A stretch of DNA of 64,000 nucleotides from Acidobacteriota bacterium (GTDB taxonomy: Bacteria > Acidobacteriota > UBA6911 > RPQK01 > CBDAPI01). Positions 36,015 through 57,194 of the stretch are shown here, in pieces. The stretch spans positions 3,947,337-4,011,336 of the forward strand of contig OZ240092.1 in the NCBI GenBank assembly GCA_965197285.1, given 5' to 3'. Positions within the stretch are counted from its first letter, which is position 1; each line of letters starts with the position of its first letter. Below the pieces are notes generated by a model, which was not told the DNA's origin, did no database searches, and saw nothing but the letters and a program-made list of their open reading frames with translations. Position numbers and translations under genes: made by a program.

Positions 36015-36500
36015 CAGGACGATGGGCAGGAGGTCGTTATTGACACGAATGTCTTTCTCTCAGGCGTCTTCTTTGGCGGGCTACCCTGCCGGATCTTGAG
36101 GGCCTGGCGTGACAGCAAGCTCACCCTGGTTTATTCCTTGGAAATTCTGGGTGAGTATAGAAGAACGGGTGTCAGACTGGCACGTCGGTTCGAAGGGCTA
36201 GATCTCGATCCATTTCTCGCGCTGGTGGTAACTGAAGGCAGGCTTTTCGCCTCCCCCGCCCTGGATGAAGACGTGTGTGAGGACCCTGCAGACGACAAGT
36301 TCTTCGCATGCGCGGTCGCGAGCGGCTGCAGGCTGATTGTTAGTGGTGACAAGCATCTGCTCAAGGCAACGGGATACACAGCATTGAAGTGCTCCGGCCT
36401 CGAGCATTCGTGGAGAGTTATCTCTAGCCCGGATTATGCAAGAGATCTAAATTCAAGTGAGATTTGGGCCCAGGAAAAAGGCCGTAGCTCTCTGATATAA
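36015..36500 (+). pseudogene. PIN-family toxin (TIGR00305-like toxin-antitoxin component PIN family). Its 5' end is split off by the IS256 insertion and its 3' end runs into the IS1380 terminal repeat
   Basis: VVIDTNVFLSGVFFGG...DPADDKFFACAVASGCRLIVSGDKHLL matches the family; no start codon after the IS; a candidate original TTG start lies at 34601 on the other side of the IS. Confidence 0.6.
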
Positions 36501-38080
36501 AAGGGTTTACAAAAACAAAGACCCTAAACAGGAGCTACGGCAATGTCAAAAACAGTCTGCCAGAATACCCTGCCATTTCACAGCCACAGAAAGATCACGA
36601 CGCGTTTTGATGGAGGGAGCCTCACTTCCGACGCAGGATGGTTGTTGTTTGGATCCCTGGATCGTCAACATCGATTGTGCGAGGGCTTCAGTTCGTGTAT
36701 TGCGGAAAGTCGAGACCGACGCTACGTTCGTCATGACCTGTTGAAGTTGATCCGACAACGAGTCTTGCAGATCGTGGCCGGCTACGAAGACTGTAACGAC
36801 GCCGATACGCTGCGCTCGGATCCGATGCTCAAGACAGTCTGTGATCAGTTGCCAGAGAGCGATCCCGATTTGGCCACCCAGCCGACTTTCTCCCGCCTGG
36901 AGAACTCCGTCACCAAGAAGGATCTGATGCGTCTGAGCCGGTGGCTGCCAGGCCGTTATGTGCGCTCCCTGAAGAAGAGACGTCCCAGCAAGATCATCCT
37001 GGATCTGGACAGTACCGACGACCACACTCACGGCCAACAGGAGTTCTCCTTCTACCACGGGTATTACCGAAACCACATTCTGCATCCTTTGCTGATCTTC
37101 GATGCCGACACGGGAGACCTGGTCTGTGCCGTGTTGAGACCTGGCAACAAGGGGGCTGCCTCTCACATCGTGCCCATTCTGAAGCGAGTCGTGGAGGCCA
37201 TCCGACAAGCAGTGGGGACGGATGTCGAGATTGAGATTCGGGCCGACAGCGGCTTTGCCACGCCTCGGCTCTACGAGTTCTGTGAATGTGAAGAGAATAA
37301 ACTCCAGTATGTCATTGGGTTAAGTCGAAACCCTCGCCTGCAGCGAGTGGTCGAGCCCCTGCTGGATTCGACTCGGCTGAGGTTCCTTGAGCTGGAGGAA
37401 AAACAGCGTCAGTTTGACGAGTTTCTTTATCGAGCCCACAGCTGGGATCGATCCCGTCGCGTCATTGTCAAAGTGGAGGTCGATCAGCGTGGCATCAATC
37501 GTCGCTTTGTAGTTACCAACCGGGACGATCTCTGCTCCCAATCACTTTATGACCACTACACAAACCGAGGGCAGACCGAGAACTTCATCAAGGCCTTCAA
37601 GAATCATCTGAGCATGGACCGACTCAGCTGTCATCGATTCCTGGCCAATCAGTTTCGACTCCTCCTGCATGCACTGGCTTACCAGATGTCCGTGCGCCTG
37701 CGCGACTATCTTCACGGAACCCCCTGGCACAAGCTCGAAATCGAAACCTTACGTCGTCGGGTCCTCAAGATCGGGGCCCGGATCCGACAAACCACTCGAC
37801 GCATCTGGGTCCATCTTTCCTCAGCCTTCCCCGAACAACCCCTCTTCCACCTCGTCTTGAGTCGCCTGAACTCCAGTTAGCTTTTCCCAGCTCCCCCGAA
37901 AAACCGCTTCCGACACTCATCCAGGCCCAGATCTGTCTGAAATTCACTCCCCAAACCACTCAAACGCCTCGCCAACCCATATTCTTCGCAAATCCGCCTG
38001 TCACACCTGCCCGCTTCCGAGTTGGGCCACTTCTCAAGTCGTTTTTCAACACCGAACTACGGTTCTTGCATAATCCGGGC
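36460..38080 (+). mobile_element. IS1380-family insertion sequence, copy a (about 1.6 kb; ends approximate)
   Basis: transposase 36543-37880; candidate IRs GCCCAGGAAAAAGGCCGTAGCTC / rc GCCCGGATTATGCAAGAACCGTAGTTC. Confidence 0.6.
36543..37880 (+). CDS. IS1380-family DDE transposase
   Basis: FDGGSLTSDAGWLLF, LDLDSTDDHTHGQQE, YHGYY, ADSGF, YTNRGQTENFIKAFKN signatures. Confidence 0.9.
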   Translation: MSKTVCQNTLPFHSHRKITTRFDGGSLTSDAGWLLFGSLDRQHRLCEGFSSCIAESRDRRYVRHDLLKLIRQRVLQIVAGYEDCNDADTLRSDPMLKTVCDQLPESDPDLATQPTFSRLENSVTKKDLMRLSRWLPGRYVRSLKKRRPSKIILDLDSTDDHTHGQQEFSFYHGYYRNHILHPLLIFDADTGDLVCAVLRPGNKGAASHIVPILKRVVEAIRQAVGTDVEIEIRADSGFATPRLYEFCECEENKLQYVIGLSRNPRLQRVVEPLLDSTRLRFLELEEKQRQFDEFLYRAHSWDRSRRVIVKVEVDQRGINRRFVVTNRDDLCSQSLYDHYTNRGQTENFIKAFKNHLSMDRLSCHRFLANQFRLLLHALAYQMSVRLRDYLHGTPWHKLEIETLRRRVLKIGARIRQTTRRIWVHLSSAFPEQPLFHLVLSRLNSS

Positions 38081-38082
38081 TA

Positions 38083-38523
38083 GTGGCTGACCGCACCGAG
38101 TTCTGGTGGAACGAGCGCAAGCCCGACGAGCCGATGCTGTGGGAAAGCAAGATCGAACTCGGCGAGAAGTTTTTTAACGAGATTATCCGCCACCCAGTGC
38201 CGCTGGACATGAATACCCTCAACGCGCTCAAACGCTGCTCCCTGGGTCTGGATCTCTACCTCTGGCTCGCCTACCGCACCTTCGCTCTCCGCGCTCCGCA
38301 ACGGCTCACCTGGAAGCAGTTGTACCGTCAGTTCGGCCCGCATCCGGCCAAGGCGAACGATCCCGCCACCGTCAAGAACTTCCGCCGCAAAATCCTACGG
38401 GAGTTGAAGAAGATCAAGATCGCGTGGCCGGACCTAAACTACACTACGGCTCCGGGGGTCTTGATTCTCTTGCCCTCGACGCCCATCATCCTTCCGGGGC
38501 AGCAGCTTTCACTCCCGGAGTAG
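38083..38523 (+). pseudogene. C-terminal fragment of a plasmid replication initiator (RepA_C domain); N-terminal half missing
   Basis: VPLDMNTLNALKRCSLGLDLYLWLAYRTF...TWKQLYRQFG...NFRRKILRELKKIKIAWPDL matches the RepA_C family; begins (GTG) right at the IS1380 end, preceded by an in-frame TAG. Confidence 0.6.
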
Positions 38524-39757: not shown

Positions 39758-42700
39758 TTGTCGCGGGTTGATGGGAGGCTTGATGATGGACTTTGCTGGA
39801 ACCGAAGGGACTCAGGGACTCGGCGAATGCAGCACTTCTGTGTTGGCCGGCCGGGTTGGGCGACGGTGCGGCCCGGCGCGGCCCATCCGGCTGGCGACTC
39901 GGGTGGCCGAAGCCGGCGCGGGCCGGTTGCGCCGCTTGTTGCCCTTGCCGGGGCGGCAGCGGCGGCCCCCGCCCTCGCCCAGACCCCCTCGCACTGCAAC
40001 CCGTCGGACCGCAACGAACTCTGGTGCGCGACCCTGACGGTGGAGCTAGACCACCGGTTCGCGGATACTTGGGCGGATATTATCGGGTTTGTCGCCCCCG
40101 ATTCCGGCACGAGTTCTCCTCCTTACGGGAGCGTCGCGCCCGGGCGCACCTTCACTTGGCGCGGGAACTCGTTCAGAGTGGACGTTCTCCGTGTCCGGGG
40201 GATGGGGCAGTTGATATTCAGGTTCGGCCCGGACCGTCTCGGGTCCGGCGTTTTCGCGCTGGAGGTCGGGACGGGAGCGAGCAAGCGAAGCTTCCCAATT
40301 CTCCTTAACGGTTCAAGGTTCCAACAATGGTCCGACACGGGCCTGGCCGGGGCCTGGTCGGCGGGCGACAGCGTCCCGGTCAAGCTCGTCCGCATCGCCA
40401 CCGTGCCGGGCAGGCCGGCCTCCCTGCACGCGGTCCCGAACGGGCAGACGCAGATCGACCTCACCTGGGGCGCCCCCGAGGATGGCGGCGCGGATATCAC
40501 GGGCTACAGGATCGAGGTGTCCACCGACGGAGGCCTCACGTTCAGGGAGCTCGTGGCCACCACGTCCAGCCGGAGCACGACCTACAGCCACACCGGTCTC
40601 ACGCCCGGCAGGACCTATCACTACAAGGTCAAGGCGATCAACTCCGTCGGCACGGGCCCCAGATCGTTGATTCCCAGCGCCACCGCCGGCGCCCCCCCGC
40701 ACAACGTCAACGCGACTGCGCAGTGCGACGCGACCGACAGCAACGAACTGTGGTGCGCCACCCCCTGACGGTGGGCAAACATTCTGCCTTCTTTGGGCTT
40801 GGCAACGTTGCCGGCAGAGTACTTGGCAGTGCCCAACCCGCGTCCTTCACCCTGGACTCGCAGGAAATCCATGTCAGGAAACTGATGTACATTGCCGGAT
40901 CGCGGGCCCTCGATTTCGAAATCTCTCACGGTCTGGGCTCCGGCCACTTCTCGCTGGAGATCGGCACGGGTCGGATCAAGAAGTCCTTCCCCATCGTGAA
41001 CCGGGGAACCCGAACGGTGTTCCGCTTTTCCTTGCAAGGCCTCAACTGGCAGCTCGTCGATACGGCCCCCGTCACGCTCAAGCGCGCCGGCCGCCCGGGC
41101 AGGCCGACCTCGCTGCGCGCGACCGCGAACGGGCCGAGCCAGGTCGACCTCACGTGGAACGCCCCGGAGGATGACGGCGCCGGCCGGATTACGGGCTACA
41201 AGATCGAGTGGGAGGAGCAGGAAGTTTATTTTGCGAAAACCCTCGTGGAAGACACGGGCAACGCGAAGACGACCTATGGCCACACCAGCCAAGGCCCCAT
41301 CCCTCTCAAAGGGGGCGAACTTTACTTTTACCGGGTCTCGGCGATCAACTCCGCCGGAACGGGTCCCGCAACCGAATGGGTGGAGATTGTCGCCAACACC
41401 GCGAGCCCGGCGCTCGGGCACTGCAACCCGTCCGACCCGGACGAGTTCTGGTGCGCCACCATGACGGTCGACACGTGGAGTAGTACGAACGCCAATTGGT
41501 TCGGTTTCCAGACTTATGGGTCAGACCACGGCGACCTATCCCCCAGGATGTTTGCCTGGCAGGGGACCAGCTACACGGTCAGTCAGTTGATCTTCGAACA
41601 AGCCAAACAGGACCTAGATTTCATAGAGATACGGTTCCGTATAAATCCCCTAGGGGCGGCGACGTTTTATGAACAGGACTACGTGCTGCATGTCGGAAAC
41701 CAGCGGTTCCCGTTTCAAGCTGCCAGTGGCTTTCCGGGGGCAGGTCAACGCTATCACGAATGGCTGGATACGGACGTCGACTTCCTGGGGATGTTTTCGA
41801 CGGGCGACCAGGTCATCGTGAAGCTGACGCGCACCAATCACCCGCCAACGTCACGTGACAACCGGGTCTACATCGAGGAGAACACGGGCCATAACTTCTC
41901 GCGTCCGGAGTTTCCATTCTCCGATGAAGACCAGGGCGACCGGCTGGAACGCGTCAGGATCGTGACCGTGCCCGCGGCGAGGAAAGGCACCCTGACCCTC
42001 GACGGCTCTGCGGTGAGCGCCGGCGACACGGTGACGCCCAGTCAACTGGAGGCTGGCCTTCTCAGGTACTCGCCGCCCCCATGGCGGTTTGGCCGGAACC
42101 TCGCGAGATTTGCCTTCAGAGTGAGCGACGGCAAGGACGAGAGCGCGGCAGACTACACGCAGGCGATCAGTGTGACCCGCTCCTCCGGTGGCTACCACGT
42201 CGGGGGTGGCGGCAAGCTTTCGCAGAAATTCACCACGGGCCCCAATCCGGCCGGCTACCGGCTGGAGGACGTCACGGTCGGGATCATACAGGGGCCGCCC
42301 GCCGTGCCGGCGTTCTCGATCTACAGGCCGGTCTCCCGCCTCCAGTCGAAACCGGGGACCGAAAAGGTCCTCGACTTGACCGGCAGCGTGGCCACCACGG
42401 GGGACCAGACCTTCACGCCCGCACCGGGCACGCCCGACAGCGCGCGGATCCTCGAACCCGATACCAGCTATCACGTGGTGTTCGAGGCGGCCTCGAACTC
42501 CCCCGCAAGTGTGCGGCTGCAGCAGAGCACGGCCCCCCCGACCTGAGCAGAGTCCCGGAGGGATGGTCCTTGCAGAACTGGCATTACTATTACGACCGCA
42601 CCCCCCCGAATACCAGCGTCCCGTGGGCCTGGGGCATCAGCACCAGCGGCATCGTCCTGATCGGGATCACCGCCACTCCGGGGGGGGGCGCCGCAGATCG

Positions 42701-43939
42701 CGGTCGATCCGCCGATCGTCGAGGGCGCGCCCCGCCTCAGCGGCGCAGCCGACGGCGGAACCTGGCGGGAGGGCGAGACCGTCGAGGTGGCGCTCACCTT
42801 CAGCGAGGCGGTGGACGTGGACACGACGGACGGCAGGCCGTCGGTCGGCCTCGCGCTCGGGGGACACGCCGCCGCTCCCCGCCGACTATCTGCGGGGCAG
42901 CGGCACGACGGAGTTGGTCTTCGGCTACACGCTGGTCGATGGCGACGGCGACCACAACTCCGTGCTGGTGATGGCGAACAGCCTGACGCTCGATGGCGGG
43001 ACCATCCGCAGCCAGGAGAAGCAGGCGGACGCGCTGCTGGACCACAACGGCGCGGGGACACAGGGCGGCGGCGGCCCTCTCAACGCCGCGCCGACGGCAA
43101 GCTTCCAGGACGTACCGGAGCACCATGACGGGGAGACGGCCTTCACCGTGGGGCTGCGCTTCAGCGGTGAGCCCGCGGGGCTCGATGCCAAGCGGGACGC
43201 GGCCTCGGTGCTCGAGGTGACGGGCGGGACCGTGACGGGTGTGCGGCGGACGGAGACGGGCGCGAGCCCGGTCTGGGAGGTGACGGTCGCGCCCTCGGGC
43301 ATCGGCGACGTGACGGTGCGGCTGCCGGCGCGGGCCTGCGGCGAGGCGCACGCGGCGTGCATCGGCGGGCGGGCGCTGGCCGAGGCCCTGGAGGCGGCGG
43401 TGCCGGGCCTGGCGATGACGGCAGGCTTCACGCAGGCGCCGGATGCGCATGACGGCTCGGGCGCCTTCGAGCTGCACCTTGCGTTCAGCCACGAGCCGAA
43501 GGGCTTCAGCTACCGCACGGTGAGGGATGCGCTGTTCGATATTGAGGGCGGGCGCATCGAGCGCGTGTGGCGCAACCCGCGCGGGCAGAACCGCCAGTGG
43601 GGCATCGAGGTGGTCCCGGCGGGGGATGGCGCGGTCACGCTCACCGCGCGGGCCACAACCAGCTGCGCGGCGCAGCATGCCGCCTGCGACGACGCGGGGA
43701 GGAAGTTCGCGGGAGACCTGGTGCTCACGATCGAAGGTCTCGACGCCGGCGGGGAGCAGACCGAAGATCCGCCCGACCCGATCACCGCGCGCTGGTCACA
43801 GGCGCCCGCCGAGCACGACGGGACCAATGCGTTTAAGATCCGCTTCCATCTGAGCGCGTCACCGGGAAGCCTGAGCTACGTGACGGTCCGGGATTCGCTC
43901 TTCGCCGTGACGGGGGGCAGCATTGACCTTGCCCCCTAA
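39758..43939 (+). pseudogene. giant secreted repeat protein (adhesin-like). It has an N-terminal signal/TAT-like peptide, three ~130-aa Cys-motif modules interleaved with two fibronectin type III domains (third module alone), an Ig-like repeat and three ~105-aa C-terminal tandem repeats. It is interrupted by at least four frameshifts at G/C homopolymers (plus an in-frame TGA at 42544 after a C7 run) and truncated at 43923 by IS3
   Basis: ORFs 39758-40768, 40327-42546, 42787-43128 and 42509-43939 join into one protein if single-base indels are assumed at C5 (about 40753), C7 (about 42535), G9 (42680-42688) and G5 (about 42855); FN3 signature (TWxAPxDDGGxxITGYxI...YxYxVxAxNxxGxG); local GC about 70%. 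Confidence 0.6.
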
Positions 43940-43990
43940 AACGGGTCCAAGTTGAATGTTAGGATTTTCGGTTTTAGGAAGGAGGCAAGG

Positions 43991-44269
43991 ATGGCACGGA
44001 AGCGGTTTACGGCAGAACAAATCATCATGAAGCTGCGTGAGGCAGAGGCAGGTCTAGCCCAAGGACAGACGGTGGGCCAGATGTGCAAACAGATTGGGGT
44101 GACCGAGCAGACCTACTACCGGTGGCGCAAGGAGTACGGAGGGCTTCGACTGAATCAGGCCAAGCGGTTGAAGGTGTTGGAGAAGGAGAATGCCCGGTTG
44201 AAGAAGCTAGTGGCAGATCTGTCTTTGGACAAGCAGATCCTAAAGGAAGTTTCCTCGGGAAACTTCTAG
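43991..44269 (+). CDS. IS3-family transposase OrfA (HTH plus leucine zipper)
   Basis: MARKRFTAEQIIMKLREAE...[21 protein letters not shown]; RBS GGAAGGAGG upstream. Confidence 0.8.
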   Translation: MARKRFTAEQIIMKLREAEAGLAQGQTVGQMCKQIGVTEQTYYRWRKEYGGLRLNQAKRLKVLEKENARLKKLVADLSLDKQILKEVSSGNF

Positions 44270-45162
44270 GCCCGGCGAAGAGGAGACGCGCAGTGGTGTG
44301 GGTGAGGGAGAGATTGGGAGCAGAGCGCGTCTCCGAACGTCGGGCCTGCCAAGTGCTGGGACAGGCTCGATCGACCCAGCGAAGGGAAAGGCATATCCCC
44401 GATGATGAGGCTCGATTGGTGGCTGAGGTGGTGGAGTTGGCCACGCACTACGGGCGATACGGCTACCGACGGATCACGGCCATGCTTCGTTGGGAAGGGT
44501 GGAAAGTGAATCACAAGCGGGTGGAGAGGTTGTGGAGACAGGAGGGGCTGAAAGTCCCGTCCAGACAGCCGAAACGAAGGAGACTGTGGCTTCATGATGG
44601 ATCCTGCGTTCGGTTACGAGCGGCTCACAAGGATCACGTCTGGAGCTATGACTTCGTGCATGAGCGAACCCATGACGGAAGGGCCTTTCGATTATTAACC
44701 CTACTGGATGAATACACCCGGGAGTGTCTGGCCATTGAGGTTCAACGACAGATGAATCACCAGGACGTGTTGGATCGATTGGCGGAGTTGTTCGTGGATC
44801 GGGGAGTGCCTGAATACATTCGGTCCGATAACGGGTCGGAGTTTACGGCTCAGGCGGTTCGGGACTGGCTGAAGGCTGTTGGGGTGAGGACCTTACACAT
44901 CGAGCCCGGCAGCCCCTGGGAGAATGGATATGTGGAGAGCTTCAACGGAAAACTGCGGGATGAACTGCTGAACGTAGAAGTCTTCGACACGTTGTGGGAA
45001 GCGAAGGTGTTGGCCGAGAGATGGCGCAGGGAGTACAACCAGCGACGGCCTCACAGCGCCTTGGCCTATCGGCCGCCGGCGCCGGAGGCCAGATTACCCA
45101 GGTCCCAGGCCCAGAGTTCTATACCATGGAGTGGACTTCAAATGGTCCCAGGTCTAACTTAG
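44083..45162 (+). CDS. IS3-family transposase OrfB (integrase/DDE core), presumably expressed as OrfAB by -1 frameshifting around 44240-44270
   Basis: DDE core with [12 protein letters not shown] and [16 protein letters not shown] motifs. Confidence 0.8.
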   Translation: MQTDWGDRADLLPVAQGVRRASTESGQAVEGVGEGECPVEEASGRSVFGQADPKGSFLGKLLGPAKRRRAVVWVRERLGAERVSERRACQVLGQARSTQRRERHIPDDEARLVAEVVELATHYGRYGYRRITAMLRWEGWKVNHKRVERLWRQEGLKVPSRQPKRRRLWLHDGSCVRLRAAHKDHVWSYDFVHERTHDGRAFRLLTLLDEYTRECLAIEVQRQMNHQDVLDRLAELFVDRGVPEYIRSDNGSEFTAQAVRDWLKAVGVRTLHIEPGSPWENGYVESFNGKLRDELLNVEVFDTLWEAKVLAERWRREYNQRRPHSALAYRPPAPEARLPRSQAQSSIPWSGLQMVPGLT

Positions 45163-45191
45163 AGAGTGGACTCGTTCCTGGGGGCAGGTCA

Positions 45192-45611
45192 ATGGTGACA
45201 TCGACGGGTCTTCTGAGAGGCTCCACCCGATTCCAGTTGATCGGCGAGGAAACAGGGACTTTGGTGGAGGATGTGGGGATTCCCAACGCCAGAACCGGAA
45301 GCAGGTTCCTGACCGCTTACCGCAAGAAGGATGAATTGGCTTTTGCGATCGCCAACCCGACCGAAGACCAGATTGAAGTCAAGGTTCTGGTCTACGACAG
45401 CGAGGATCCGGGCCAGCCGGCGGGGGGATTTCTGATCTTCGTCCCGGGTCGCGGCCAGGTGGCCAGGTTCTTGAGTCAGTTCGTACAGACCGATTTCGAA
45501 GAAGGACACCTGATTGTCGAGAGCGACGGCGGGGAGGAGTTTGCCCTGTCAGGTCTGATTACCTTGGACGGACTTTTCGTTTCGGCGCAGTCGATTTCAC
45601 TGCTTCAGTAA
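45192..45611 (+). CDS. hypothetical protein, possibly 5'-truncated (ATG abuts the IS3 right end)
   Basis: 139-aa ORF immediately after IS3; no motif recognised; GC lower than the adhesin region. Confidence 0.35.
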   Translation: MVTSTGLLRGSTRFQLIGEETGTLVEDVGIPNARTGSRFLTAYRKKDELAFAIANPTEDQIEVKVLVYDSEDPGQPAGGFLIFVPGRGQVARFLSQFVQTDFEEGHLIVESDGGEEFALSGLITLDGLFVSAQSISLLQ

Positions 45612-45758
45612 CGTCGAAAGCGGCTACCGGTCCTGGAAGCACTCGAAGACGCAACTCTGTAACCCGGTTTGCATCCATACCGGCGTGATAAGATCTTTTC
45701 CTGTCCAACCCGGGTCGCTGGAAGGCGAGTGTGGCCCCCGGCACCCTGGAGCGCTGGC

Positions 45759-46958
45759 ATGATGCGAGTCTTTTTTGCCTTTTTCCTGGCCTTCTCCGTC
45801 CTCGTGCCGTCGGATGCGGCGGTGGCTGCCGATGAGGCGTGGACCGGCCTCTGGAAGCTGGAACAAAAGTCGGAAAAGAATAGTCCGATTTTCGTTCTCT
45901 GGATCCCGTCATCCGGCCGGCCCCATCTGTTCGACCACGAGTGGAACGATGTCCACCTTGCCTCCGGCTCCGGCTGGGAGGGAGATAGCCTCGAGATCAG
46001 CCAGTACTTCAAAGGCGGGCAGATTGTCTGGTCGGGTCGGCGCGACGGCAATGCTCTGGAGGGGGAGTGGAAGTTTCTTCATATACAGTACAGTTCCAAG
46101 GGATCTTTTTCCGGGACCCGTGAGTCTCCTGTGGCGCTGAGCGACTGGAACCCTCTGCAGGCTGCTAATGCTTCCACCTCAGAACACGGAGTCCTGAACC
46201 TGACGGCGATACTCCACGAGGCGGCCGGTGATGAAGCCGGCTTTCGGGAGTATTGGGAAAACACGTTCCTCCCCGGCTTCCTGCCTTTTTTACCTGACTT
46301 TCCAGATAGTTCAGTGGCCTGGGCCGCCCTTCAGAAAGACGAGGAAATCGCTGTTTCACGACAGCTCGACGATCACGCCACCAACCTGACGAAGCTCCTG
46401 CAAAAGAACTTTCCTCCCTATAAGAACCCCTACAGCTTTGTCATCTCTCCTTTTGGCGCAAAGCCAAAGCGGATGGTTATTGCAGAGAGTTCGTTCCTCC
46501 TGCTCAACCCGCGTCCGTTTGTCGAGGGGATTGAGACAGACAAGCTCCGGATATCGCAGAAACTTCTGGCTGCTCAACTTTATCCCTTTACGCGCATGTA
46601 CCGGAAACAGTCTGGGGCTGTGTTCAAGACCGGCCTCAAGCTGTTCTTACTCGAGGCGGCCTATCCGGAGGAGCTGCCCGAGATTCTGGAAGTGAAGGAA
46701 AAGCGCCTCACACAACTGCAGAAGCAGCTTCCGAAGTTGAAGGAGAAGATGGGCGCCGGTAAGAAACTCAAACCCGACGAGCTGCGATATCTGAGTCTCG
46801 GTTTCGCTCGGGCACTTGCCTTCAGCTACCCCTTCCAGGGTGTCCTCAAGGCTCCTCCCCGGGAAATCGTCAAGCGCCTGGTGGAGTACATTCATGTGCT
46901 CCCGAAGCGGACCGCGGGGAAGGATCCGGCAGGGGACAAAACGCCCAGGAAGAATTAG
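45759..46958 (+). CDS. secreted hypothetical protein (start at MMRVFFAFFLAF signal peptide)
   Basis: clear signal peptide then 370-aa domain of unknown function with a Lys-rich C-terminus. Confidence 0.5.
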   Translation: MMRVFFAFFLAFSVLVPSDAAVAADEAWTGLWKLEQKSEKNSPIFVLWIPSSGRPHLFDHEWNDVHLASGSGWEGDSLEISQYFKGGQIVWSGRRDGNALEGEWKFLHIQYSSKGSFSGTRESPVALSDWNPLQAANASTSEHGVLNLTAILHEAAGDEAGFREYWENTFLPGFLPFLPDFPDSSVAWAALQKDEEIAVSRQLDDHATNLTKLLQKNFPPYKNPYSFVISPFGAKPKRMVIAESSFLLLNPRPFVEGIETDKLRISQKLLAAQLYPFTRMYRKQSGAVFKTGLKLFLLEAAYPEELPEILEVKEKRLTQLQKQLPKLKEKMGAGKKLKPDELRYLSLGFARALAFSYPFQGVLKAPPREIVKRLVEYIHVLPKRTAGKDPAGDKTPRKN

Positions 46959-46966
46959 TTCGCCGC

Positions 46967-47749
46967 TCAGACCAGATCGACGATCAGCTTGCGCGTGCGG
47001 GAGTGAACCACTGCACCCAGGAGGCACGCACCGAGGGCCACTACGATCAGGTAAAGGAGTCCTGCCGGTGAAGGTGCGGCCTGCCCGAAAAAAACGTAGC
47101 GGTGCAGGGCGATCAGGTGGGTGAGGGGGTTCAGATCCAGGATCCAGGCCAGGCTTCCCGCTCGCGAATGCGGGTACACGATTGGTGTCGTCCAGAAAAG
47201 GATGAGGAAAACTGCGCCCAGGGCCTGAGCCACGTCCCGCACCAGAACAGTCGCACAGGCCAGAATCAGCGAAAGGCCGAATGCCAGAGTCAGTTGCAAC
47301 AAGCCGGCAAGAGGCCAGATGCACAGTGTCACCAGGCTGAGTTCCTGCTTGAACGTCAGGACCGCTACGAATAGAAGAGTTCCCACACACTGGTGAACAA
47401 AAGCCGATGTAATGATTCCCAGGGGCAGAGCAGGAAGAGGAAAACGAGCCCTGGTGATCAGCTGCCCGTGATCGAGAAAGGAGCGGGCCGATCGATTGAG
47501 GCTTTCCTGGAAGGCCAGCCAGGGAAGTAAAGCCGCAAAAAGAAAAAGGGCGAATCGCCCGCTGGACGCGCTCTCATCAAAGCTCTGCCCCAGGAAGCCG
47601 GAAAAGACCAGTGTGTAGACGGTCAACTGCAGCAGCGGATTGAGGATCGACCAGGCTCCTCCCAGCAGCGAGCCCCGGTAGCGACTCTTCACGTCCCGCC
47701 GCACCAGCTCTCCTACCAGGTACCTGTTTCTCCAGAGATCCGTCACCAT
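46967..47749 (-). CDS. ABC-2 type polysaccharide/O-antigen export permease (Wzm/KpsM-like); no cognate ATPase gene adjacent
   Basis: 6-TM ABC-2 architecture; start taken at MVTDLWRNRYLVGELVRRDVKSRYRGS, typical of Wzm. Confidence 0.7.
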   Translation of the reverse strand: MVTDLWRNRYLVGELVRRDVKSRYRGSLLGGAWSILNPLLQLTVYTLVFSGFLGQSFDESASSGRFALFLFAALLPWLAFQESLNRSARSFLDHGQLITRARFPLPALPLGIITSAFVHQCVGTLLFVAVLTFKQELSLVTLCIWPLAGLLQLTLAFGLSLILACATVLVRDVAQALGAVFLILFWTTPIVYPHSRAGSLAWILDLNPLTHLIALHRYVFFGQAAPSPAGLLYLIVVALGACLLGAVVHSRTRKLIVDLV

Positions 47750-47795
47750 TTGTTGCAGCCAGCCTCGCGCAGCCGCGAGGAGTATACTATAGGCC

Positions 47796-49613
47796 TTGGC
47801 TGCGCAGGAGCCCCAGTTCCGAATAGCTCGATCTCTCGTCCTCTTGATTTTCGGGCTTCTGCCCCTGGTGGTTTCCGTCGCGGGCCTGGACAAATTCCGC
47901 ACGCCGAAAGACATCGTGATCACCTCGGCGATTCCTCTCCTGGCAGTCATCTGTCTGGCCGGTTCCTCATTCAGAATCCGTTTGGGCGTCTTCGAGTGTA
48001 CGGTTCTTGGGGCCGCGGTCTACGTTCTGATTCACGGATTTTATCAGGGTGGAATGGAAGCTGCGGTCACGCTCTGCCTGTTCGCGCTGTGGCTGCTGCT
48101 CCTGTCCCGGCTCCTGTCCTGGCGGTTTCAGAAGCGTGTCTGGCTGGTGGCGGCGCTTTCTCTCAGTCTCAACTGCGTGGCCAATGTTGTGCAGTATTTT
48201 GGGATGTTTCCGTGGATGCTGCGAGATGGCGGAAAGGCCATGTCGGGCCGGGTGACGCCGGCAGGCCTGCTCGGGGAAGTCGGCACCGGAGCGATCCTTT
48301 TCGGCATGATCGTCCTGATGTCCATTTACTTTCTCCTCTTCGAGCGGAATCGGTCGCTTCGAGTCGGCTGGCTGTTGGTCTCCCTGTTCAACCTGGTGGG
48401 CCTGCTGCTCACGCGTACGATGACGGCAAGTCTGGCGCTGACAGGATGCCTCCTTCTGTGGCTGGGCTTTCACCACTGGTGGGTCGTCAAACGCCACCCT
48501 CAATCGCGTCGCCGGCTGGCAGCTCTATGGGCTGTTATCGTGGTGGGAGGGGGGTTGGCTGCCGCCTTTGCAGTTCAGTCGGAACTCTGGGACCGCGTCT
48601 CGCGAGCCGCCCGCCAGGCGATGAGCGGAAGCCTGGAAGTGGCCACGGCGGGGCGCTACTCCGTGTATCTGATCACGTGGGACATGATCAAGGACCGGCC
48701 GCTGGCGGGTCGCGGACTCACGTCCTTCGCACCAGCCTTTTACCACCAGCGGACCGAGACCGGGTACGGCCGCGAAGTAGCGCTTCTCCCCCAGGCGGGC
48801 GCCTTTCGAGAGGCCCACAACGAGTACCTGCAAACCTGGGCCGAACTCGGGTTGCCGGGCTTGCTCTTACTCACCGGGCTGCTGGGTTTCTCTCTATTCT
48901 CTGCACTTCGCCTGTCTTTCAGGGAAACCGATCCGCAACGATGCTATTGGGCCGGAATCCTTGCCCTGGCCCTGATCTATTTTCTCATCGCTTCGCTGAC
49001 CATGTTTCCTCTTCATGTCAGCTCCACCGCGATCTTTGTCTGTTTGATCGTGGCGTCCATTCGACATCTCGATCGCTACGGGTTCGAGGAAAACGGTACC
49101 CCTTCAACCGAAGGAGGGGGTAGGAGACGAAAGCTGCTGGCGGCCGTCGCGCTGATCCTGTCCCTGCCCCTGCTTTACGGGCAGTACCAGAAATGGCAGG
49201 CGAACAATTCACTTGGCATGGCGGCGTTCTTGCTGGAGGGGGCCAGCCGGCAGAATCTCAACACCCGGCAACTCCGAACCGTAGCGACGCGGGCGCTGGC
49301 TCTGCTGGATCGTCCCGAGTCGAGTCGCGCCTGGTTTCCGGAGCTTCATAGCCTGCGAGGTTCGGCCGCCATGTTTCTGGGCCGCTACCGGATGGCAGAG
49401 GCATCCTACCGGAAGGCTATAGTCAGGATTCCAAGTCCTGAAACGATGACCAACCTGGCGGCGGCTCTGATTGCCCAGAACGAATGCGAGAAGGCCGAGC
49501 CTTTTCTCCAGTCGGCCCTCCGCTACAATCCGGGGTACCGCGAGGCCGGCCAGGCCCGCCAATACTGTCGCCGCCAGAAACGGCGAAGCACGGGGCCGAA
49601 AAAGGAGCCATGA
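47796..49613 (+). CDS. O-antigen ligase/polymerase-family membrane protein (Wzy_C) with C-terminal TPR domain
   Basis: multi-TM with RGLTSFAPAFYHQ...AHNEYLQTWAELGLPG Wzy_C loop; C-terminal TPR-like helices. Confidence 0.7.
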   Translation: MAAQEPQFRIARSLVLLIFGLLPLVVSVAGLDKFRTPKDIVITSAIPLLAVICLAGSSFRIRLGVFECTVLGAAVYVLIHGFYQGGMEAAVTLCLFALWLLLLSRLLSWRFQKRVWLVAALSLSLNCVANVVQYFGMFPWMLRDGGKAMSGRVTPAGLLGEVGTGAILFGMIVLMSIYFLLFERNRSLRVGWLLVSLFNLVGLLLTRTMTASLALTGCLLLWLGFHHWWVVKRHPQSRRRLAALWAVIVVGGGLAAAFAVQSELWDRVSRAARQAMSGSLEVATAGRYSVYLITWDMIKDRPLAGRGLTSFAPAFYHQRTETGYGREVALLPQAGAFREAHNEYLQTWAELGLPGLLLLTGLLGFSLFSALRLSFRETDPQRCYWAGILALALIYFLIASLTMFPLHVSSTAIFVCLIVASIRHLDRYGFEENGTPSTEGGGRRRKLLAAVALILSLPLLYGQYQKWQANNSLGMAAFLLEGASRQNLNTRQLRTVATRALALLDRPESSRAWFPELHSLRGSAAMFLGRYRMAEASYRKAIVRIPSPETMTNLAAALIAQNECEKAEPFLQSALRYNPGYREAGQARQYCRRQKRRSTGPKKEP

Positions 49614-49643
49614 GGACTGTCTAGCACCAGGCCGGAAGAAAGT

Positions 49644-50612
49644 AGGATTGGAATCGACGCCCGCTCCCTGCGTTGGGGACCGGCAGGTGTTGCTACTTAC
49701 GTCTCCAATCTCCTGCAATTCCTTCCCTGGCTCGACGCTCTGGAATCCTCCAGGCCGGTGAACAACCTGCTCTTCAACTGCGTGCGGGTGCCTCTGGCCG
49801 CGTGGCGCCGCCGATGGCAGGTGTGCCACGCTCCCTCCTACACCTGTCCACTCGTCAGTCCTTGTCCGATCGTCATGACCGTTCACGACATCTCCTATCT
49901 GGCCCACCCCGAGTGGTATCCATACAAGCGAGGGGTCGCGCGACAGGCCTACTACCGGGCCTGTCTGCGGCGGGCGGATCGAATCGTGGTTCCTTCACGG
50001 TTTTCGGAACAGGAGATTGTGGACCGTTTTCCGGGCCTGGAGGGACGGATCCGGATCGTTCCGATGGGGGTGTCCGAGTTCTTCTCGCCCGCCCCCGACC
50101 TGGCCCGTGAAGTCTGTCGAGAGCTGAATCTTCCCTCCCGGTTCATTCTGCACGTGGGGGATCTGCATGTGCGTCGCAATCTGTGGCTGCTTCAGCGGGC
50201 GGCCGAGCAGGTGGGTTTGCCACTCGTCCTGGTTGGAAGACCCCTGGAAGAGGGTTCGATTCCCGACGGAGCTCTGCTCTTCACTGACATTTCAATGGAC
50301 AGGCTCAAAGGGATCTACTCTGCCGCAGCCGTTTTTGCCTACCCGTCCCTGTACGAGGGATTCGGTCTGCCGGTCCTGGAGGCGATGGCCTGTGGGGTTC
50401 CGGTTGTGGCCTCCGACCGGGGCTCCCTTCCCGAGGTTTGCGGCCAGGCCGCCGAACTGGTGGAGCCCGACCAGGACGGCCTGGTTGCCGGCATAGAAAG
50501 AGCGCTGGGAAATGGTGAAGTCCTCCGCAAGAGAGGTCTGGTGCGAGCCTCGGGTTTTTCCTGGGAGCAAACGGCGGCTGCGACGCTGGAAGTGTACCGT
50601 GAACTCATGTGA
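49644..50612 (+). CDS. GT4-family glycosyltransferase; the N-terminal Rossmann domain is in frame from 49614 but lacks a canonical start codon
   Basis: RIGIDARSLRWGPAGVATYVSNLL typical GT4 N-terminus upstream of the listed ATG 49758; C-terminal EGFGLPVLEAMACGVPVV motif. Confidence 0.7.
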   Translation, partial: RIGIDARSLRWGPAGVATYVSNLLQFLPWLDALESSRPVNNLLFNCVRVPLAAWRRRWQVCHAPSYTCPLVSPCPIVMTVHDISYLAHPEWYPYKRGVARQAYYRACLRRADRIVVPSRFSEQEIVDRFPGLEGRIRIVPMGVSEFFSPAPDLAREVCRELNLPSRFILHVGDLHVRRNLWLLQRAAEQVGLPLVLVGRPLEEGSIPDGALLFTDISMDRLKGIYSAAAVFAYPSLYEGFGLPVLEAMACGVPVVASDRGSLPEVCGQAAELVEPDQDGLVAGIERALGNGEVLRKRGLVRASGFSWEQTAAATLEVYRELM

Positions 50613-50819
50613 GCCCAACCGGCTGGCACAACAGGCCCCTGCGAGACGGACCGCTATCAGCGCTTCGAGGCCACACGGCGCGTGACCTTGCCCCCTAAAA
50701 CGGGTCCAAGTTGAATGTTAGGATTTTCGGTTTTAGGAAGGAGGCAAGGATGGCACGGAAGCGGTTTACGGCAGAACAAATCATCATGAAGCTGCGTGAG
50801 GCAGAGGCAGGTCTAGCCC

Positions 50820-52552
50820 GCATAGATCACCGATTTGGAAATGAAGGTGATTTTGGCAGGCCGGAACGGTTTTCTGAGAGTTTCGCTATCGATCCGGTCC
50901 AGGTCGAGTGATGCGGTGGTGTGGAGGGTCGTGAATGGAGCGTTTTTCGGGCTCGGAAGAGGGTGACGGAACGGATTCAGGCAGAGCTCGGCCTGAGCGA
51001 TGGAACGATTTCGTTTTTGGGGCGTTTGATCGGGACAGACCTCAGCAGCGCAGAGGAATGGCCTGGAGGTTTCGAACGACGGCAGCGAAGACCTCGCTGT
51101 AGGGATAGGCTTCCGACATGGAGATCCAGACGTGGCGGACCGTGAGGCGGACCTGGGCGCCGATCTTGAGGAGCTTCAAGCGAATCGTCTGACACTGAGC
51201 GCGAGCCAGGGGGGTCTGCTTCAGTCCGAGACGACGCAAGGCGTGCATGAGCATGTAGGCGGCGGAGGACAGATACAGCCGGAGTTGATTGGCGCGCATC
51301 GTTGCCGCGCTGGTCCGGTCGGCGAACAGATCCAACTGCTGTTCTTTTATGCGGTTCTCCATGTCGCCCCGCGCACAGTAGAAGTCTTCGTAGAGCGCGC
51401 GGGCCCCCAGGCGTTCCGGCGACAGGGAGGTGACGATGAATCGGGGATTGGCGCCTTTCTCCAGGAACTCGGCCTTGCCGACGACGCGTCGCTCCGAGGT
51501 CCAACTGTGGCGAGTCCGGTAGCGGAAATCCTGGAACACCCGCGCCGGTCGCCCGGTGGCGTTGAACTCGGCTTCGGCCTGAGTCATCGCTTCGGCGATC
51601 TCTGACTTGAGCCGATCATTGTTGGCCAACCCCATCACGTAATCCACGTGATGGTCTTCACACCAGCGGAGCAAGTCATCCCGGCAAAAGCCAGAGTCGG
51701 CCCGGATGACGATCGAGACCTCCGGCCAGCTCTGCCGAATCCGGCCGACGATCCGTTCCAGTTCCTCCGCCGATCCCGCGGCCCCATCGATATTGGAACA
51801 CCGCAACCGGGCGCACAGCAGATGCTCCCCCGAGAAGATGTACAGCGGGAGATAACAGTAGTGGCGGTAGTAACCGTGAAAGAACCGGCCTTCCTGCTGG
51901 CCATGGATCGGGTCGTCGGTCGCATCCAGATCCAGCACGATCTCCTCGGGCGCCGATTCGTGGGACTCCACGAAGGCATCCACCATCCAGCCGTCGATCC
52001 GGTCCGGGTCCATCGCGATCTTCTTGTACCGCTCCTGCTCATCGACCTCGGCGCCGGTCAACTCCAACCGGTTCAGCGTACACCTGCCCGCCAGCGCCTT
52101 CCCCCGATCTGAGGCCTGCCGCCGCCGCTCCCCCAACGGATCGGCCTTATTCACCGCCACCGCCAGCATCGGATCGGTGCGCAACTGATCATGATCGTTC
52201 AGATCCTCGTACCCCAGACAGAGTCCGTAGATGCGCTGCCCCAACAACTCCTCGACCGTGTGTTCGATCAACCGCGGATCCCGGTGATCCCTGAAGCACG
52301 CGGTCAGTCCGGCAACGAGACCCGTCCGCTGCTCGACCTCGCGTAACAGCAGCACCCCTGCATCGGAGGTGATCTTCCCGCCGTCGAACCGCGCCTTCAC
52401 TTTGCGTTGAAATAGTCCGTGAAATTCGAACCTGGCTTGTTTACACTCTGTTCTCATAAGGGCCGCCTCCGTTTGGCTTTGAAGTCTTTCATTCAAAACG
52501 CTTTATACCAAACAGGGCGGCCTTTTGAGGTCCTATCGGTGAGAAATGGCGG
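50820..52552 (-). mobile_element. IS1380-family insertion sequence, copy b (a different member from copy a), nested inside IS3 copy 2
   Basis: IRs GCATAGATCACCGAT / rc CCGCCATTTCTCACCGAT; target CTAGCCC present on both sides (TSD 4-7 bp, exact ends ambiguous). Confidence 0.65.
51042..52496 (-). CDS. IS1380-family DDE transposase
   Basis: FDGGKITSDAGVLLL, LDLDATDDPIHGQQE, FHGYY, ADSGF, YCARGDMENRIKE signatures. Confidence 0.9.
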   Translation of the reverse strand: MNERLQSQTEAALMRTECKQARFEFHGLFQRKVKARFDGGKITSDAGVLLLREVEQRTGLVAGLTACFRDHRDPRLIEHTVEELLGQRIYGLCLGYEDLNDHDQLRTDPMLAVAVNKADPLGERRRQASDRGKALAGRCTLNRLELTGAEVDEQERYKKIAMDPDRIDGWMVDAFVESHESAPEEIVLDLDATDDPIHGQQEGRFFHGYYRHYCYLPLYIFSGEHLLCARLRCSNIDGAAGSAEELERIVGRIRQSWPEVSIVIRADSGFCRDDLLRWCEDHHVDYVMGLANNDRLKSEIAEAMTQAEAEFNATGRPARVFQDFRYRTRHSWTSERRVVGKAEFLEKGANPRFIVTSLSPERLGARALYEDFYCARGDMENRIKEQQLDLFADRTSAATMRANQLRLYLSSAAYMLMHALRRLGLKQTPLARAQCQTIRLKLLKIGAQVRLTVRHVWISMSEAYPYSEVFAAVVRNLQAIPLRC

Positions 52553-53661
52553 CTAGCCCAAGGACAGACGGTGGGCCAGGTGTGCAAACAGATTGGGGTG
52601 ACCGAGCAGACCTACTACCGGTGGCGCAAGGAGTACGGAGGGCTTCGACTGAATCAGGCCAAGCGGTTGAAGGTGTTGGAGAAGGAGAATGCCCGGTTGA
52701 AGAAGCTAGTGGCAGATCTGTCTTTGGACAAGCAGATCCTAAAGGAAGTTTCCTCGGGAAACTTCTAGGCCCGGCGAAGAGGAGACGCGCAGTGGTGTGG
52801 GTGAGGGAGAGATTGGGAGCAGAGCGCGTCTCCGAACGTCGGGCCTGCCAAGTGCTGGGACAGGCTCGATCGACCCAGCGAAGGGAAAGGCATATCCCCG
52901 ATGATGAGGCTCGATTGGTGGCTGAGATGGTGGAGTTGGCCACGCACTACGGGCGATACGGCTACCGACGGATCACGGCCATGCTTCGTTGGGAAGGGTG
53001 GAAAGTGAATCACAAGCGGGTGGAGAGGTTGTGGAGACAGGAGGGGCTGAAAGTCCCGTCCAGACAGCCGAAACGAAGGAGACTGTGGCTTCATGATGGA
53101 TCCTGCGTTCGGTTACGAGCGGCTCACAAGGATCACGTCTGGAGCTATGACTTCGTGCATGAGCGAACCCATGACGGAAGGGCCTTTCGATTATTAACCC
53201 TACTGGATGAATACACCCGGGAGTGTCTGGCCATTGAGGTTCAACGACAGATGAATCACCAGGACGTGTTGGATCGATTGGCGGAGTTGTTCGTGGATCG
53301 GGGAGTGCCTGAATACATTCGGTCCGATAACGGGTCGGAGTTTACGGCTCAGGCGGTTCGGGACTGGCTGAAGGCTGTTGGGGTGAGGACCTTATACATC
53401 GAGCCCGGCAGCCCCTGGGAGAATGGATATGTGGAGAGCTTCAACGGAAAACTGCGGGATGAACTGCTGAACGTAGAAGTCTTCGACACGTTGTGGGAAG
53501 CGAAGGTGTTGGCCGAGAGATGGCGCAGGGAGTACAACCAGCGACGGCCTCACAGCGCCTTGGCCTATCGGCCGCCGGCGCCGGAGGCCAGATTACCCAG
53601 GTCCCAGGCCCAGAGTTCTATACCATGGAGTGGACTTCAAATGGTCCCAGGTCTAACTTAG
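52546..53661 (+). CDS. IS3-family transposase OrfB (copy 2)
   Basis: near-identical to 44083-45162. Confidence 0.8.
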
Positions 53662-53687
53662 AGAGTGGACTCGTTCCTGGGGGCAGG

Positions 53688-54557
53688 TCAGCGACTGCCT
53701 CCGAGCTTCTGTCGAAACCGCCGGGCCGCATGCGCCAGGTCGATTCCGGCCAGCACCAGGCGGGTCTGGAGCGGGTGGGCCCTGGGAGCGTAGTGTTTGG
53801 CATGGAAGATCTTCATGGCGTCAAAAAAATGCCTGGTGTTCACCGCCGTGTCCTGGTCTGAGCTGCGACTCTTCAGGTGGGTAACTGTGGCCCCGGCATA
53901 GTACTCCACCAGCCAGCCCGCCTGGAGGGCCCGATAGCAGAAATCCAGGTCCTCGCCATAGAGGAAAAACCCTTCATCCAGGAGCCCGATCTTCTCGGTC
54001 AGTTCTCGGCGAAACATCAGAAACGAACCGGAGACCGCTTCCACCGGCTGCGTCTTGTTTTCGTCCAGAGAGGTCAGGTTGTAGGCTCCGAACTCCCGAC
54101 TGCGGGGAAACAGTCGGCTCAGCCCGAGAAAGCGATAGATCGAATTTCGGACCGTGGGTATGGAGCGCTGGCAGGCCAGCTGGAGACTCCCGTCGGGATT
54201 CAGGATCCGGCATCCCACTACACCCGTCTGCGGGCGGCTCCGAAGGTAGTCCAGGGTCTTCTCGATGGCGTTGTCGTGAATGATAACGTCCGGATTCAGG
54301 AGCAGGAAAAAGGGGGCAGTAGCGTGACGGATTCCACGATTGCAGGCTTTGGCAAACCCCTCGTTGTGCCGATTGAGGAGAAGCACGGGTGAAGAACAGC
54401 GGAGTTCGTTTTCCAGCCGGGACTGGTCAGAGGAAGCGTTGTCCACGACAACCACTTGGATCTGGTCTTCTTGATTCGCCCTTCGTATGCCGGACAGACA
54501 CTGAAGAAGGTCGGCAGTCGAGTTGTAGTTCACGATGATGACGGATAGTTGCATCAC
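53688..54557 (-). CDS. GT2-family glycosyltransferase; its stop codon is supplied by the IS3 terminal TCA (last about 6 native codons replaced)
   Basis: VIIVNYNSTADLLQCL...VVDNASSD GT2 N-terminus; reconstructing the pre-insertion sequence gives ...LGGSRRVASKR*. Confidence 0.8.
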   Translation of the reverse strand: MMQLSVIIVNYNSTADLLQCLSGIRRANQEDQIQVVVVDNASSDQSRLENELRCSSPVLLLNRHNEGFAKACNRGIRHATAPFFLLLNPDVIIHDNAIEKTLDYLRSRPQTGVVGCRILNPDGSLQLACQRSIPTVRNSIYRFLGLSRLFPRSREFGAYNLTSLDENKTQPVEAVSGSFLMFRRELTEKIGLLDEGFFLYGEDLDFCYRALQAGWLVEYYAGATVTHLKSRSSDQDTAVNTRHFFDAMKIFHAKHYAPRAHPLQTRLVLAGIDLAHAARRFRQKLGGSR

Positions 54558-55528
54558 GATGGATCCGCGGTCTTGCGCCGGTACTTGAGCCAGTTCCGCT
54601 CCAGATGAAGCCGGACTTCACTGCTGCTTACAGTGCGGCCCCCCTGGATCCTCTTTCGTTTTCTAACGACGGTGCGGCTCGCTTTGAGAGCATCCAGTTT
54701 CGCCCGCACAAAGGCTGTCCCCCGTCCCTGACTGAAAAAGAAAAGGAGTGCGAGGAGATTGAAGAGGGCTCTTTCTGGAAGATAAAAGAGCAGCAGCCGG
54801 GTCGGCATGTTCTTCCAGAACACGAATTCCGAGTTTCTGTGGCCGTGAAAGACATAGGAATCAGTAAACGTTCCAATGCTGCTGTTCACGCCATGAAGCA
54901 CGCGGGCATCAGCCACATAGAGGCAGCGAAAGCCCATCAACCTGGCTCTGAAGTTCAAATCGGCGTCCTCGTAGACCAGGAAAAAGTCAGGGTCGAATCC
55001 TCCTACGGTTTCCAGGAGACTCCTCCGATACAGTGCGGCCGCAGCACAGGGCCCGAATACTTCCCGCGTTTCCAGATGCTGGTCGACCGGGTCGCCATGG
55101 CCGATCTTGAAGGCAGATCCGACGACAGCCATACCGTCTCCGGCACTGTCGATGACACCCGGTGGGGAGGCAAACTCGATTCTGGAAGCCCAGAAGGACC
55201 ACTCTGGGGAATCGTGATCGAGCAGGGTCTTCAACCAGTCCGAATCGAGCACGACGTCATTGTTCAGGATGGCGATCAAATCCCCACGGGATCTCTCGAT
55301 GCCGGCGTTGCACCCGGCCGGGTAGCCGACGTTGTCAGAAAGAGGAAGTACCCTGAGACGTGCGTCTTTGATCGGGTTCAGGATGTCCAGGCTTCGATCT
55401 GCCGAATGGTTGTCAACGACTATGACCTCCCCCGGGGGGGATGACTGGGAGAGGATCGAGTCTACACAGCTCTGGAGAAATTGTTTCCCGTTGTAGTTCA
55501 CAACTACAACTGACACCGATGGCGGCAC
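54554..55528 (-). CDS. GT2-family glycosyltransferase
   Basis: VSVVVVNYNGKQFLQSCV...VIVVDNHSAD; 4-bp overlap with the downstream gene. Confidence 0.85.
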   Translation of the reverse strand: MPPSVSVVVVNYNGKQFLQSCVDSILSQSSPPGEVIVVDNHSADRSLDILNPIKDARLRVLPLSDNVGYPAGCNAGIERSRGDLIAILNNDVVLDSDWLKTLLDHDSPEWSFWASRIEFASPPGVIDSAGDGMAVVGSAFKIGHGDPVDQHLETREVFGPCAAAALYRRSLLETVGGFDPDFFLVYEDADLNFRARLMGFRCLYVADARVLHGVNSSIGTFTDSYVFHGHRNSEFVFWKNMPTRLLLFYLPERALFNLLALLFFFSQGRGTAFVRAKLDALKASRTVVRKRKRIQGGRTVSSSEVRLHLERNWLKYRRKTADPS

Positions 55529-55580
55529 GACCGTATATTATAATTTAGCGGCAGTGGCTGCGGGCGGATTGGGAGAAAAA

Positions 55581-57047: not shown

Positions 57048-57062
57048 CGTTCCACCTTCCAA

Positions 57063-57183
57063 GAGTGGGAGGAGGCCTCCTCAGGGCCGCGACCGCCGGG
57101 CTGTGTCAAGAAAGAGTGGGCAGGGCCCCGGGGCAGCGACCGTTTAAATACCCCCGGGAGTCGCCACGGGGCCCTGCCCACTC
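57063..57183. repeat. GC-rich palindromic REP-like element, composite: partial A-type arm plus complete B-type 70-bp palindrome with TTTAAA centre
   Basis: GAGTGGGAGGAGGCCTCCTCAGGGCCGCG... then GAGTGGGCAGGGCCCCGGGGCAGCGACCGTTTAAATACCCCCGGGAGTCGCCACGGGGCCCTGCCCACTC. Confidence 0.7.
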
Positions 57184-57194
57184 TTTCGTCCTGG

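Follow-up and report, generated by a model that had tools for sequence, protein, structure and literature searches.

The window, the 64,000-nucleotide stretch of Acidobacteriota DNA analyzed here, is part of a 319-kb contig (ENA assembly ERZ25072076, 11x coverage) and holds two copies of an IS3-family insertion sequence (IS), one of which is a plain insertion and the other of which marks a place where unrelated DNA was joined. Copy 1 (43924..45191, + strand) is 1268 bp long and has both open reading frames (ORFs) intact. Copy 2 occupies 50683-53690, and its 3008 bp are the sum of the same 1268 bp and a nested insert of 1740 bp. The left part of copy 2 (50683..50816, + strand) comprises the left end and the start of orfA up to a CTAG target, and the right part (52553..53690, + strand) opens with the duplicated CTAG (52553-52556). 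Once the insert is removed, the two copies differ by 3 single-nucleotide polymorphisms (SNPs), and both open with TGACC and close with GGTCA. The 24-25-nt ends of the element occur in only two places in the window, where the chance expectation is 0. The first gene, orfA (43991..44269, + strand), encodes 92 amino acids (aa) with an HTH_Tnp_1 domain, and the second, orfB (44293..45162, + strand), encodes 289 aa as called, within an ORF that is open from 44083, with HTH_21 and rve/rve_3 DDE domains. The orfB product scores 246 bits against the NCBIfam IS3 model NF033516 (cutoff 160), and orfA also matches the N-terminal part of this model. The frame of orfB relative to orfA is -1, and a candidate -1 slippery heptamer, G GGA AAC (44257..44263, + strand), is correctly phased for this shift and is found shortly before the orfA stop codon. 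An initial annotation of this DNA had assigned both copies to the IS3 family with identical TGACC...GGTCA ends; the ends and the model score agree, and the two elements are copies of one IS3-family insertion sequence.

To place the ends of the element in a wider set, loci from other contigs were retrieved for comparison (these carry L-numbers, such as L001 and L003). The resulting census holds 18 independent complete copies, 2 in the window and 16 on other contigs, and it covers only part of the copy set of the genome. Imperfect terminal inverted repeats of ~26 bp, of the 5'-TG...CA-3' type (TGACCTTGCCCCC... / ...GGGGGCAGGTCA), are conserved in all 18. In the 16 copies from other contigs, the flanks begin to diverge immediately outside TGACC/GGTCA; therefore, the end assignment is right and no repeat is hidden beneath it. 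The earlier annotation had singled out a misplaced end at copy 1, masking a direct repeat of 3-4 bp, as the weak point of its argument, and the 18 copies instead confirm the ends as drawn, with no such repeat. A 4.04-Mb contig from this sample carries at least 11 copies, which with the 2 in the window gives the genome at least 13, and the assembly collection has 315 indexed blocks that contain the orfB protein. The end pattern was not found in JGI metagenome contigs. Among annotated elements, the closest found are ISMdi16, which is IS3-like and carried by plasmid p1METDI of Methylorubrum extorquens DM4, and unnamed IS3 elements on further alphaproteobacterial plasmids, from Paracoccus and Roseomonas. 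The orfB product is 62-67% identical to these relatives over at least 92% of its length, and the ends of ISMdi16 (TGGCCTGCCCCC...GGGGGCAGGCCA) are close to those of the element described here. Because the protein identity is ~65%, the present element is a different, unnamed one. The ends of IS407, with which the element is compared below, are of the TGACCTGCCCC type. As a separate observation, the element is found on RepA_C-type plasmids (L003, L007, and L010; circular contigs of 67 kb and 69.7 kb). One IS3-bearing plasmid is binned as 'Dehalococcoidia' and all chromosomal hosts are Acidobacteriota, which points to a plasmid that is mis-binned or that spreads the element between hosts.

Copy 2 is bracketed by GCG at 50680..50682 and GCG at 53691..53693, a 3-bp target duplication. 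Its surroundings can be compared with locus L012, which comes from a relative in another sample with 76-83% nucleotide identity (~80%). L012 is colinear with the window over 45195-50605 and again over 53697-58608, and the rebuilt empty site of copy 2 aligns to L012 across the gap with a 2-nt indel as the sole difference. The match to the relative on either side makes copy 2 a plain insertion, and the description of it as a textbook insertion flanked by GCG/GCG holds. The site is a short gap between two convergent glycosyltransferase genes, and nothing else is interrupted. The GT2 glycosyltransferase gene to its right (53688..54557, - strand) has its stop codon supplied by the terminal TCA of copy 2. 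The relative's GT2 is 6 codons longer past the equivalent position (295 aa in the gene call vs 289 aa in the window), which matches the earlier estimate that the insertion replaced about the last 6 codons at the 3' tip. A composite transposon bounded by the two copies was considered and rejected: the DNA that separates them and the DNA beyond the right end of copy 2 both run colinear with L012 and are thus native, not cargo. The GT4 glycosyltransferase (window 49611-50110) looks frameshifted near its 5' end, in that the N-terminal motif RIGIDARSL... is out of frame with the 284-aa ORF at 49758-50612; the relative's protein has 339 aa.

The insert within orfA of copy 2 is an IS1380-family element of 1736 bp (50817..52552, - strand) with ends CCCGCATAGATCACCGAT and ATCGGTGAGAAATGGCGG. 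It is parsed as CCCGCATAG...ATGGCGG, and the insert totals 1740 bp once the duplication is included. Its 471-aa transposase (51042-52457, - strand) scores 391.8 bits against the NCBIfam IS1380 model NF033539 (cutoff 180) and 524.7 bits against PF13701, and the terminal inverted repeats are perfect in the L004 copy. Size and family are as first described, namely a 1.73-kb IS1380-family element that splits orfA. The accompanying statement that CTAGCCC is repeated on both sides is literally correct, but CTAGCCC is not the duplication. Two filled/empty comparisons (copy 2 with copy 1, and L004 with L003 on a plasmid, where CTAG alone is duplicated) establish that the duplication is the 4-bp CTAG (left 50813..50816, right 52553-52556; empty sites in copy 1 and L003) and that the left CCC is part of the element. 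A second, different IS1380-family element lies at 36428..38079 (+ strand), with perfect 15-bp ends (CCCGGATTATGCAAG...CTTGCATAATCCGGG), flanks of CTAG/CTAG (36424-36427 and 38080-38083), and a 445-aa transposase (36543-37880). This element ends at the same base beside different DNA in L006 and L011, and in L006 it is cut by the IS3 element. Like IS1380 and ISEcp1, the nested element has a single DDE_Tnp_1_4 transposase, a length of ~1.7 kb, ends beginning with CC, and a 4-bp duplication. What may set them apart from these known members is that both IS1380-type elements here sit at CTAG in 4/4 sites seen (including L004 and L006), which suggests for both a strict CTAG target preference with a 4-bp duplication. 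In L009 (2953-7009), a further IS3 copy is disrupted at its position 1230: the insert measures 4.06 kb, is flanked by a 7-bp duplication (CCCAGGT), and contains istA/istB genes of the IS21 type along with a transposase of the IS256 type. Nested insertions into the IS3 element are therefore common.

Copy 1 is flanked by CAT on the left and ATG on the right, and no direct repeat is present at offsets 0 to 7, in agreement with the initial annotation. The left flank is an fn3/cadherin-like repeat adhesin (39827..43923, + strand, 67.5% GC) that is spread over three reading frames and truncated mid-repeat. Copy 1 breaks into the third of the adhesin's ~110-aa repeats, following ...LFAVTGGSI, the mid-repeat break already recognized at the outset, and the last adhesin ORF (42914-43939) has its stop codon inside the left IS end. 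The three frames span 39827-40768, 40750-42546, and 42914-43939, and one of the breaks coincides with a CCCCC run at ~40760; the frame breaks reflect either a true pseudogene or homopolymer errors at 11x coverage. The adhesin has no match on known plasmids or in JGI metagenomes. Upstream of it lies a 5'-truncated fragment of a plasmid replication gene (RepA_C; 38084..38523, + strand) that is 77.5% identical at the nucleotide level to repA of L003, a circular 67-kb contig with 77x coverage that also carries the IS3 element. A tblastn search with the fragment gave matches in 918 plasmid records. Downstream of the fragment, 49 nt (38778-38826) are 90% identical to the equivalent spot on L003 (4924-4971) and may represent a conserved replication or control element. 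This plasmid-like piece amounts to 5.8 kb, and its left boundary is the second IS1380-type element, leftward of which lies mobile debris. The debris (32530-36420) consists of IS91-type Y2 transposase fragments (32530-33326), a methyltransferase gene, and an IS256/Mutator-type transposase (34691-35983), together with a PIN-like ORF that ends at ~36424.

The right flank of copy 1 is a 5'-truncated remnant of a polysaccharide-locus gene (45192..45611, + strand). Because this ORF aligns to residues 82-219 of a 219-aa homologue (P0002), the ATG at 45192 is not the native start. The first description of this side, as abutting the ATG of an ORF with different GC, is thus correct in the GC step (67.5% on the left and 59.8% on the right, with a background of 59%) and mistaken in treating the ATG as a start codon, given that the ORF represents the gene from the codon 82 region onward. 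Nucleotide homology to L012 starts at 45195, 3 nt past the end of copy 1, and copy 1 is exactly at the left end of the colinearity with L012. Upstream of the 219-aa gene, L012 has genes for PKD-domain, BNR-domain, and other proteins, and none of its 10 kb of upstream genes is present in the window. The relative's adjacent 646-aa gene has no orthologue on any contig of at least 5.7 Mb, a set that includes a junction-carrying contig of 5.75 Mb, and seems to be absent from this genome. It is this synteny evidence, and not the missing duplication, that identifies copy 1 as a rearrangement junction at which plasmid-derived DNA has been joined to a truncated chromosomal gene. The comparison with relatives that the initial annotation had proposed therefore succeeded in part, with L012 revealing the breakpoint, but the deleted segment could not be identified from close relatives. 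Reading that segment from the left side was tried and abandoned, as the closest relatives there (those with a 91-93% identical UPF0182 protein) have entirely different, IS-rich neighborhoods.

Two simpler accounts of copy 1 bear directly on these flanks. If copy 1 were a simple insertion with a duplication that had mutated or that was just 2 bp (AT), the adhesin and the right ORF would be one gene. The flanks do share AT (cAT on the left, ATg on the right), and removal of one AT brings both ORFs into frame. However, an in-frame join arises by chance in 1 of 3 cases, the GC differs by 8 points across copy 1, and the right ORF corresponds to the C-terminal portion of an unrelated protein of 219 aa, the homologue of which has an N-terminus and neighbors of its own, so a simple insertion is scarcely credible. 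Alternatively, the assembly could be chimeric, with a plasmid and the chromosome joined through the shared 1.27-kb repeat at 11x coverage. The low coverage, the many-copy repeat, the GC step at the IS, and the plasmid-like DNA on one side are all features that such an error would have. Opposed to it is the modest extent of the plasmid-like piece, only 5.8 kb, which is bounded on its left by another IS and then by ordinary chromosomal genes. Additionally, both the ORF running across the adhesin::IS junction and the shortened ORF on the right are found on two contigs, one of 319 kb and one of 5.75 Mb (NCBI). Other duplication-less copies recur with identical flanks in different samples (L001 and L005) and in assemblies made with a different assembler, whose contig naming differs. 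A chimera is unlikely, and we assign it very little weight.

The significance of the missing duplication can be judged from the remaining copies. A target duplication is present in 3 of the 18 copies (GCG at copy 2, CGGC at L021, and CCCC at L024) and is lacking in the other 15, so its absence is not diagnostic alone. At least six copies have demonstrably unrelated flanks. At L001, an FG-GAP gene faces a truncated IS200-type transposase across the IS, L020 and L006 have half of an IS1380 transposase at the IS3 edge with the other half missing, L003 has a truncated mobC-like gene at its plasmid-borne IS3 copy, and L017 has an N-terminal CarboxypepD_reg fragment. Because several duplication-less copies have unrelated flanks, secondary loss of the duplication is likely.

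A more far-reaching account would make the lack of a duplication a property of the element itself. According to this account, an IS3 lineage that has undergone a recent burst, with many identical copies now spread over Acidobacteriota chromosomes and plasmids, usually inserts without a duplication or with a coupled deletion of the target, for example, through capture at DNA breaks. Copy 1 would then be the product of a one-step event, and the 83% of copies without a duplication would reflect an intrinsic mode of transposition rather than later recombination. On one 4-Mb contig, ten copies show few or no differences from one another and therefore point to a recent burst, 8 of these 10 lack a duplication, and the break-capture idea has already been proposed for IS5 and IS481. 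The copy in L023 (2620-2631, 3900-3910) splits a single PSCyt2/PSD1 gene, with Pfam profile positions 1-159 and 168-243 on its two sides, yet its junction is untidy (GAA, then the IS, then GGG GAA), as though three extra bases came with the right end. These extra bases are reminiscent of the spacer carry-over described for IS2. Nevertheless, clean 3-4-bp duplications exist in three copies (copy 2, L021, and L024), the relatives IS407A and IS150 make duplications of 4 bp and 3 bp, respectively, and the unrelated flanks in at least six copies can be explained by recombination or deletion without any new mechanism. We regard such an insertion mode as improbable, both for the lineage and for copy 1. 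Two related ideas were examined and set aside. Duplications of odd length or at an offset were sought at the 18 sites as shared 3-mers at offsets 0-7, with no consistent pattern and with only L023 fitting 'GAA plus 3 extra nt'. An IS911-like preference for targets resembling the IS ends, suggested by GGGGGCAG beside the left end of copy 1 and by TGAC beside the right ends of L017 and L026, was also dropped, as the similarity of the flanks is at background level.

Published IS3-family systems show the same state as copy 1. In Burkholderia mallei, 83.7% of IS407A copies have lost the matching duplication through inter-copy recombination (PMC2877748). In the Escherichia coli long-term evolution experiment, 14 one-sided adjacent deletions were made by a resident IS150 copy, with 0 duplications left (PMC11708052). 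Because this state is documented for both elements, a missing duplication at copy 1 is expected. The present element and IS407/IS407A have in common ORFs in the 0 and -1 frames, an rve DDE transposase, a size of ~1.2-1.3 kb, and a high copy number. In addition, most copies of IS407A and of the present element lack a matching duplication (83.7% vs 15/18), a lack tied to deletions and rearrangements. The likeness is one of organization and copy pattern, and the host is an uncultured Acidobacteriota instead of Burkholderia. The duplication size also varies here (3 bp at copy 2, 4 bp at L021 and L024), whereas that of IS407A is a regular 4 bp. The IS150 events differ in that they were tracked from a known ancestor, whereas the ancestor here is reconstructed from a relative that is ~80% identical.

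Taken as a whole, the evidence leads us to favor, with moderate confidence, the following explanation: copy 2 is a simple insertion, and copy 1 is a junction produced by an IS-mediated, transposase-driven rearrangement. Copy 2 would have transposed into the gap between the glycosyltransferase genes, making the 3-bp GCG duplication, and would later have been inactivated when the IS1380-family element inserted at CTAG in orfA. An IS3 copy of the plasmid lineage would have come in with the plasmid DNA that adjoins it on the left, and a transposase-driven event at the right end of copy 1 would have fused this end directly with the chromosomal gene at codon 82. This event could have been an adjacent deletion or a cointegrate-type fusion followed by decay, and events of this kind take away one copy of the target duplication. 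The left flank would then be the decaying remnant of an integrated plasmid, with the repA fragment followed by the adhesin pseudogene, and the gene on the right would have lost its first 81 codons and everything upstream. Deletion of native DNA by itself would not account for a plasmid-derived left flank; at least one integration or recombination step is also needed. The ends, the element families, the colinearity, the truncation, the plasmid origin of the left flank, and the lack of a duplication were observed directly, whereas the order of events and the enzyme that made the junction are inferred. The initial annotation had held copy 1 to be what an adjacent deletion or inter-IS recombination would leave, and the end of colinearity, the loss of 81 codons, and the plasmid DNA on the left are all in accord with it.

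The sequence of copy 1 itself bears on which of these routes was taken. Copy 1 is the most divergent copy in the genome, with 4 differences from otherwise identical copies. At positions 158 and 975 it has the alleles of the plasmid copy (158A and 975C), and its orfB variant is found at this locus only. This weakly suggests that the whole of copy 1 may have arrived with the plasmid DNA on its left. A possible but clearly less probable route is RecA-type recombination between two IS3 copies, a plasmid copy in the adhesin and a chromosomal copy in the 219-aa gene, which would have integrated the plasmid and produced hybrid copies with mismatched flanks, the remainder being lost through later deletions. 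Several observations speak for it: the genome has at least 13 near-identical copies, 15 of the 18 copies are without a duplication, the element is also present on circular plasmids, and in B. mallei the like pattern of IS407A is known to result from recombination between copies. However, copy 1 is of the plasmid type at both 158 and 975, and recombination with a resident chromosomal copy is less favored because the crossover would have to fall in the last 23% of the element. Furthermore, no reciprocal partner of copy 1 is present among the 16 other sites, a set that covers only part of the genome's copies. The search for half-site partners that had been recommended at the outset gave, within this partial copy set, one CAT right flank (L026) and no copy with an ATG left flank. 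The L026 flank encodes an unrelated ORF, not a continuation of the adhesin. Shared 4-mers across copies were likewise tried as signs of reciprocal exchange (ATTG left of L019 and right of L017; GGGT left of L022 and right of L018), and the joins yield no continuous gene.

Several points weigh against a transposase-driven junction at copy 1 and temper our confidence in it. The relative used for comparison is only ~80% identical, and the order of its upstream genes need not be the ancestral one. In closer relatives, synteny with the left side of the window is not conserved, so they give no size for any deletion. The two contigs that carry the junction may come from the same reads. The argument from the IS lineage depends on two SNPs. 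Finally, sequence by itself would fit a transposase-made junction and RecA-mediated IS-IS recombination alike.

The IS3-type element and the two IS1380-type elements are new, unnamed members of their families that behave in a well-documented way. For all three insertion sequences, the analysis provides exact boundaries in the genome of an uncultured Acidobacteriota. For the host, a surface-polysaccharide locus lost its left end at the IS and now abuts a decayed plasmid, which could change the cell-surface phenotype. In IS-rich genomes, a missing duplication is the rule and flags a rearrangement only when synteny agrees. No new biology is implied. An IS-marked breakpoint is routine in genomes overrun by insertion sequences. 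Away from the two IS3 copies, the window contains a 71-nt inverted repeat, 97% identical (2095-2165 / 3262-3332), that brackets an ORF at 2302-3240, and an imperfect palindrome of ~78 nt (57110-57187) that adjoins an epimerase-like gene (57195-58169).

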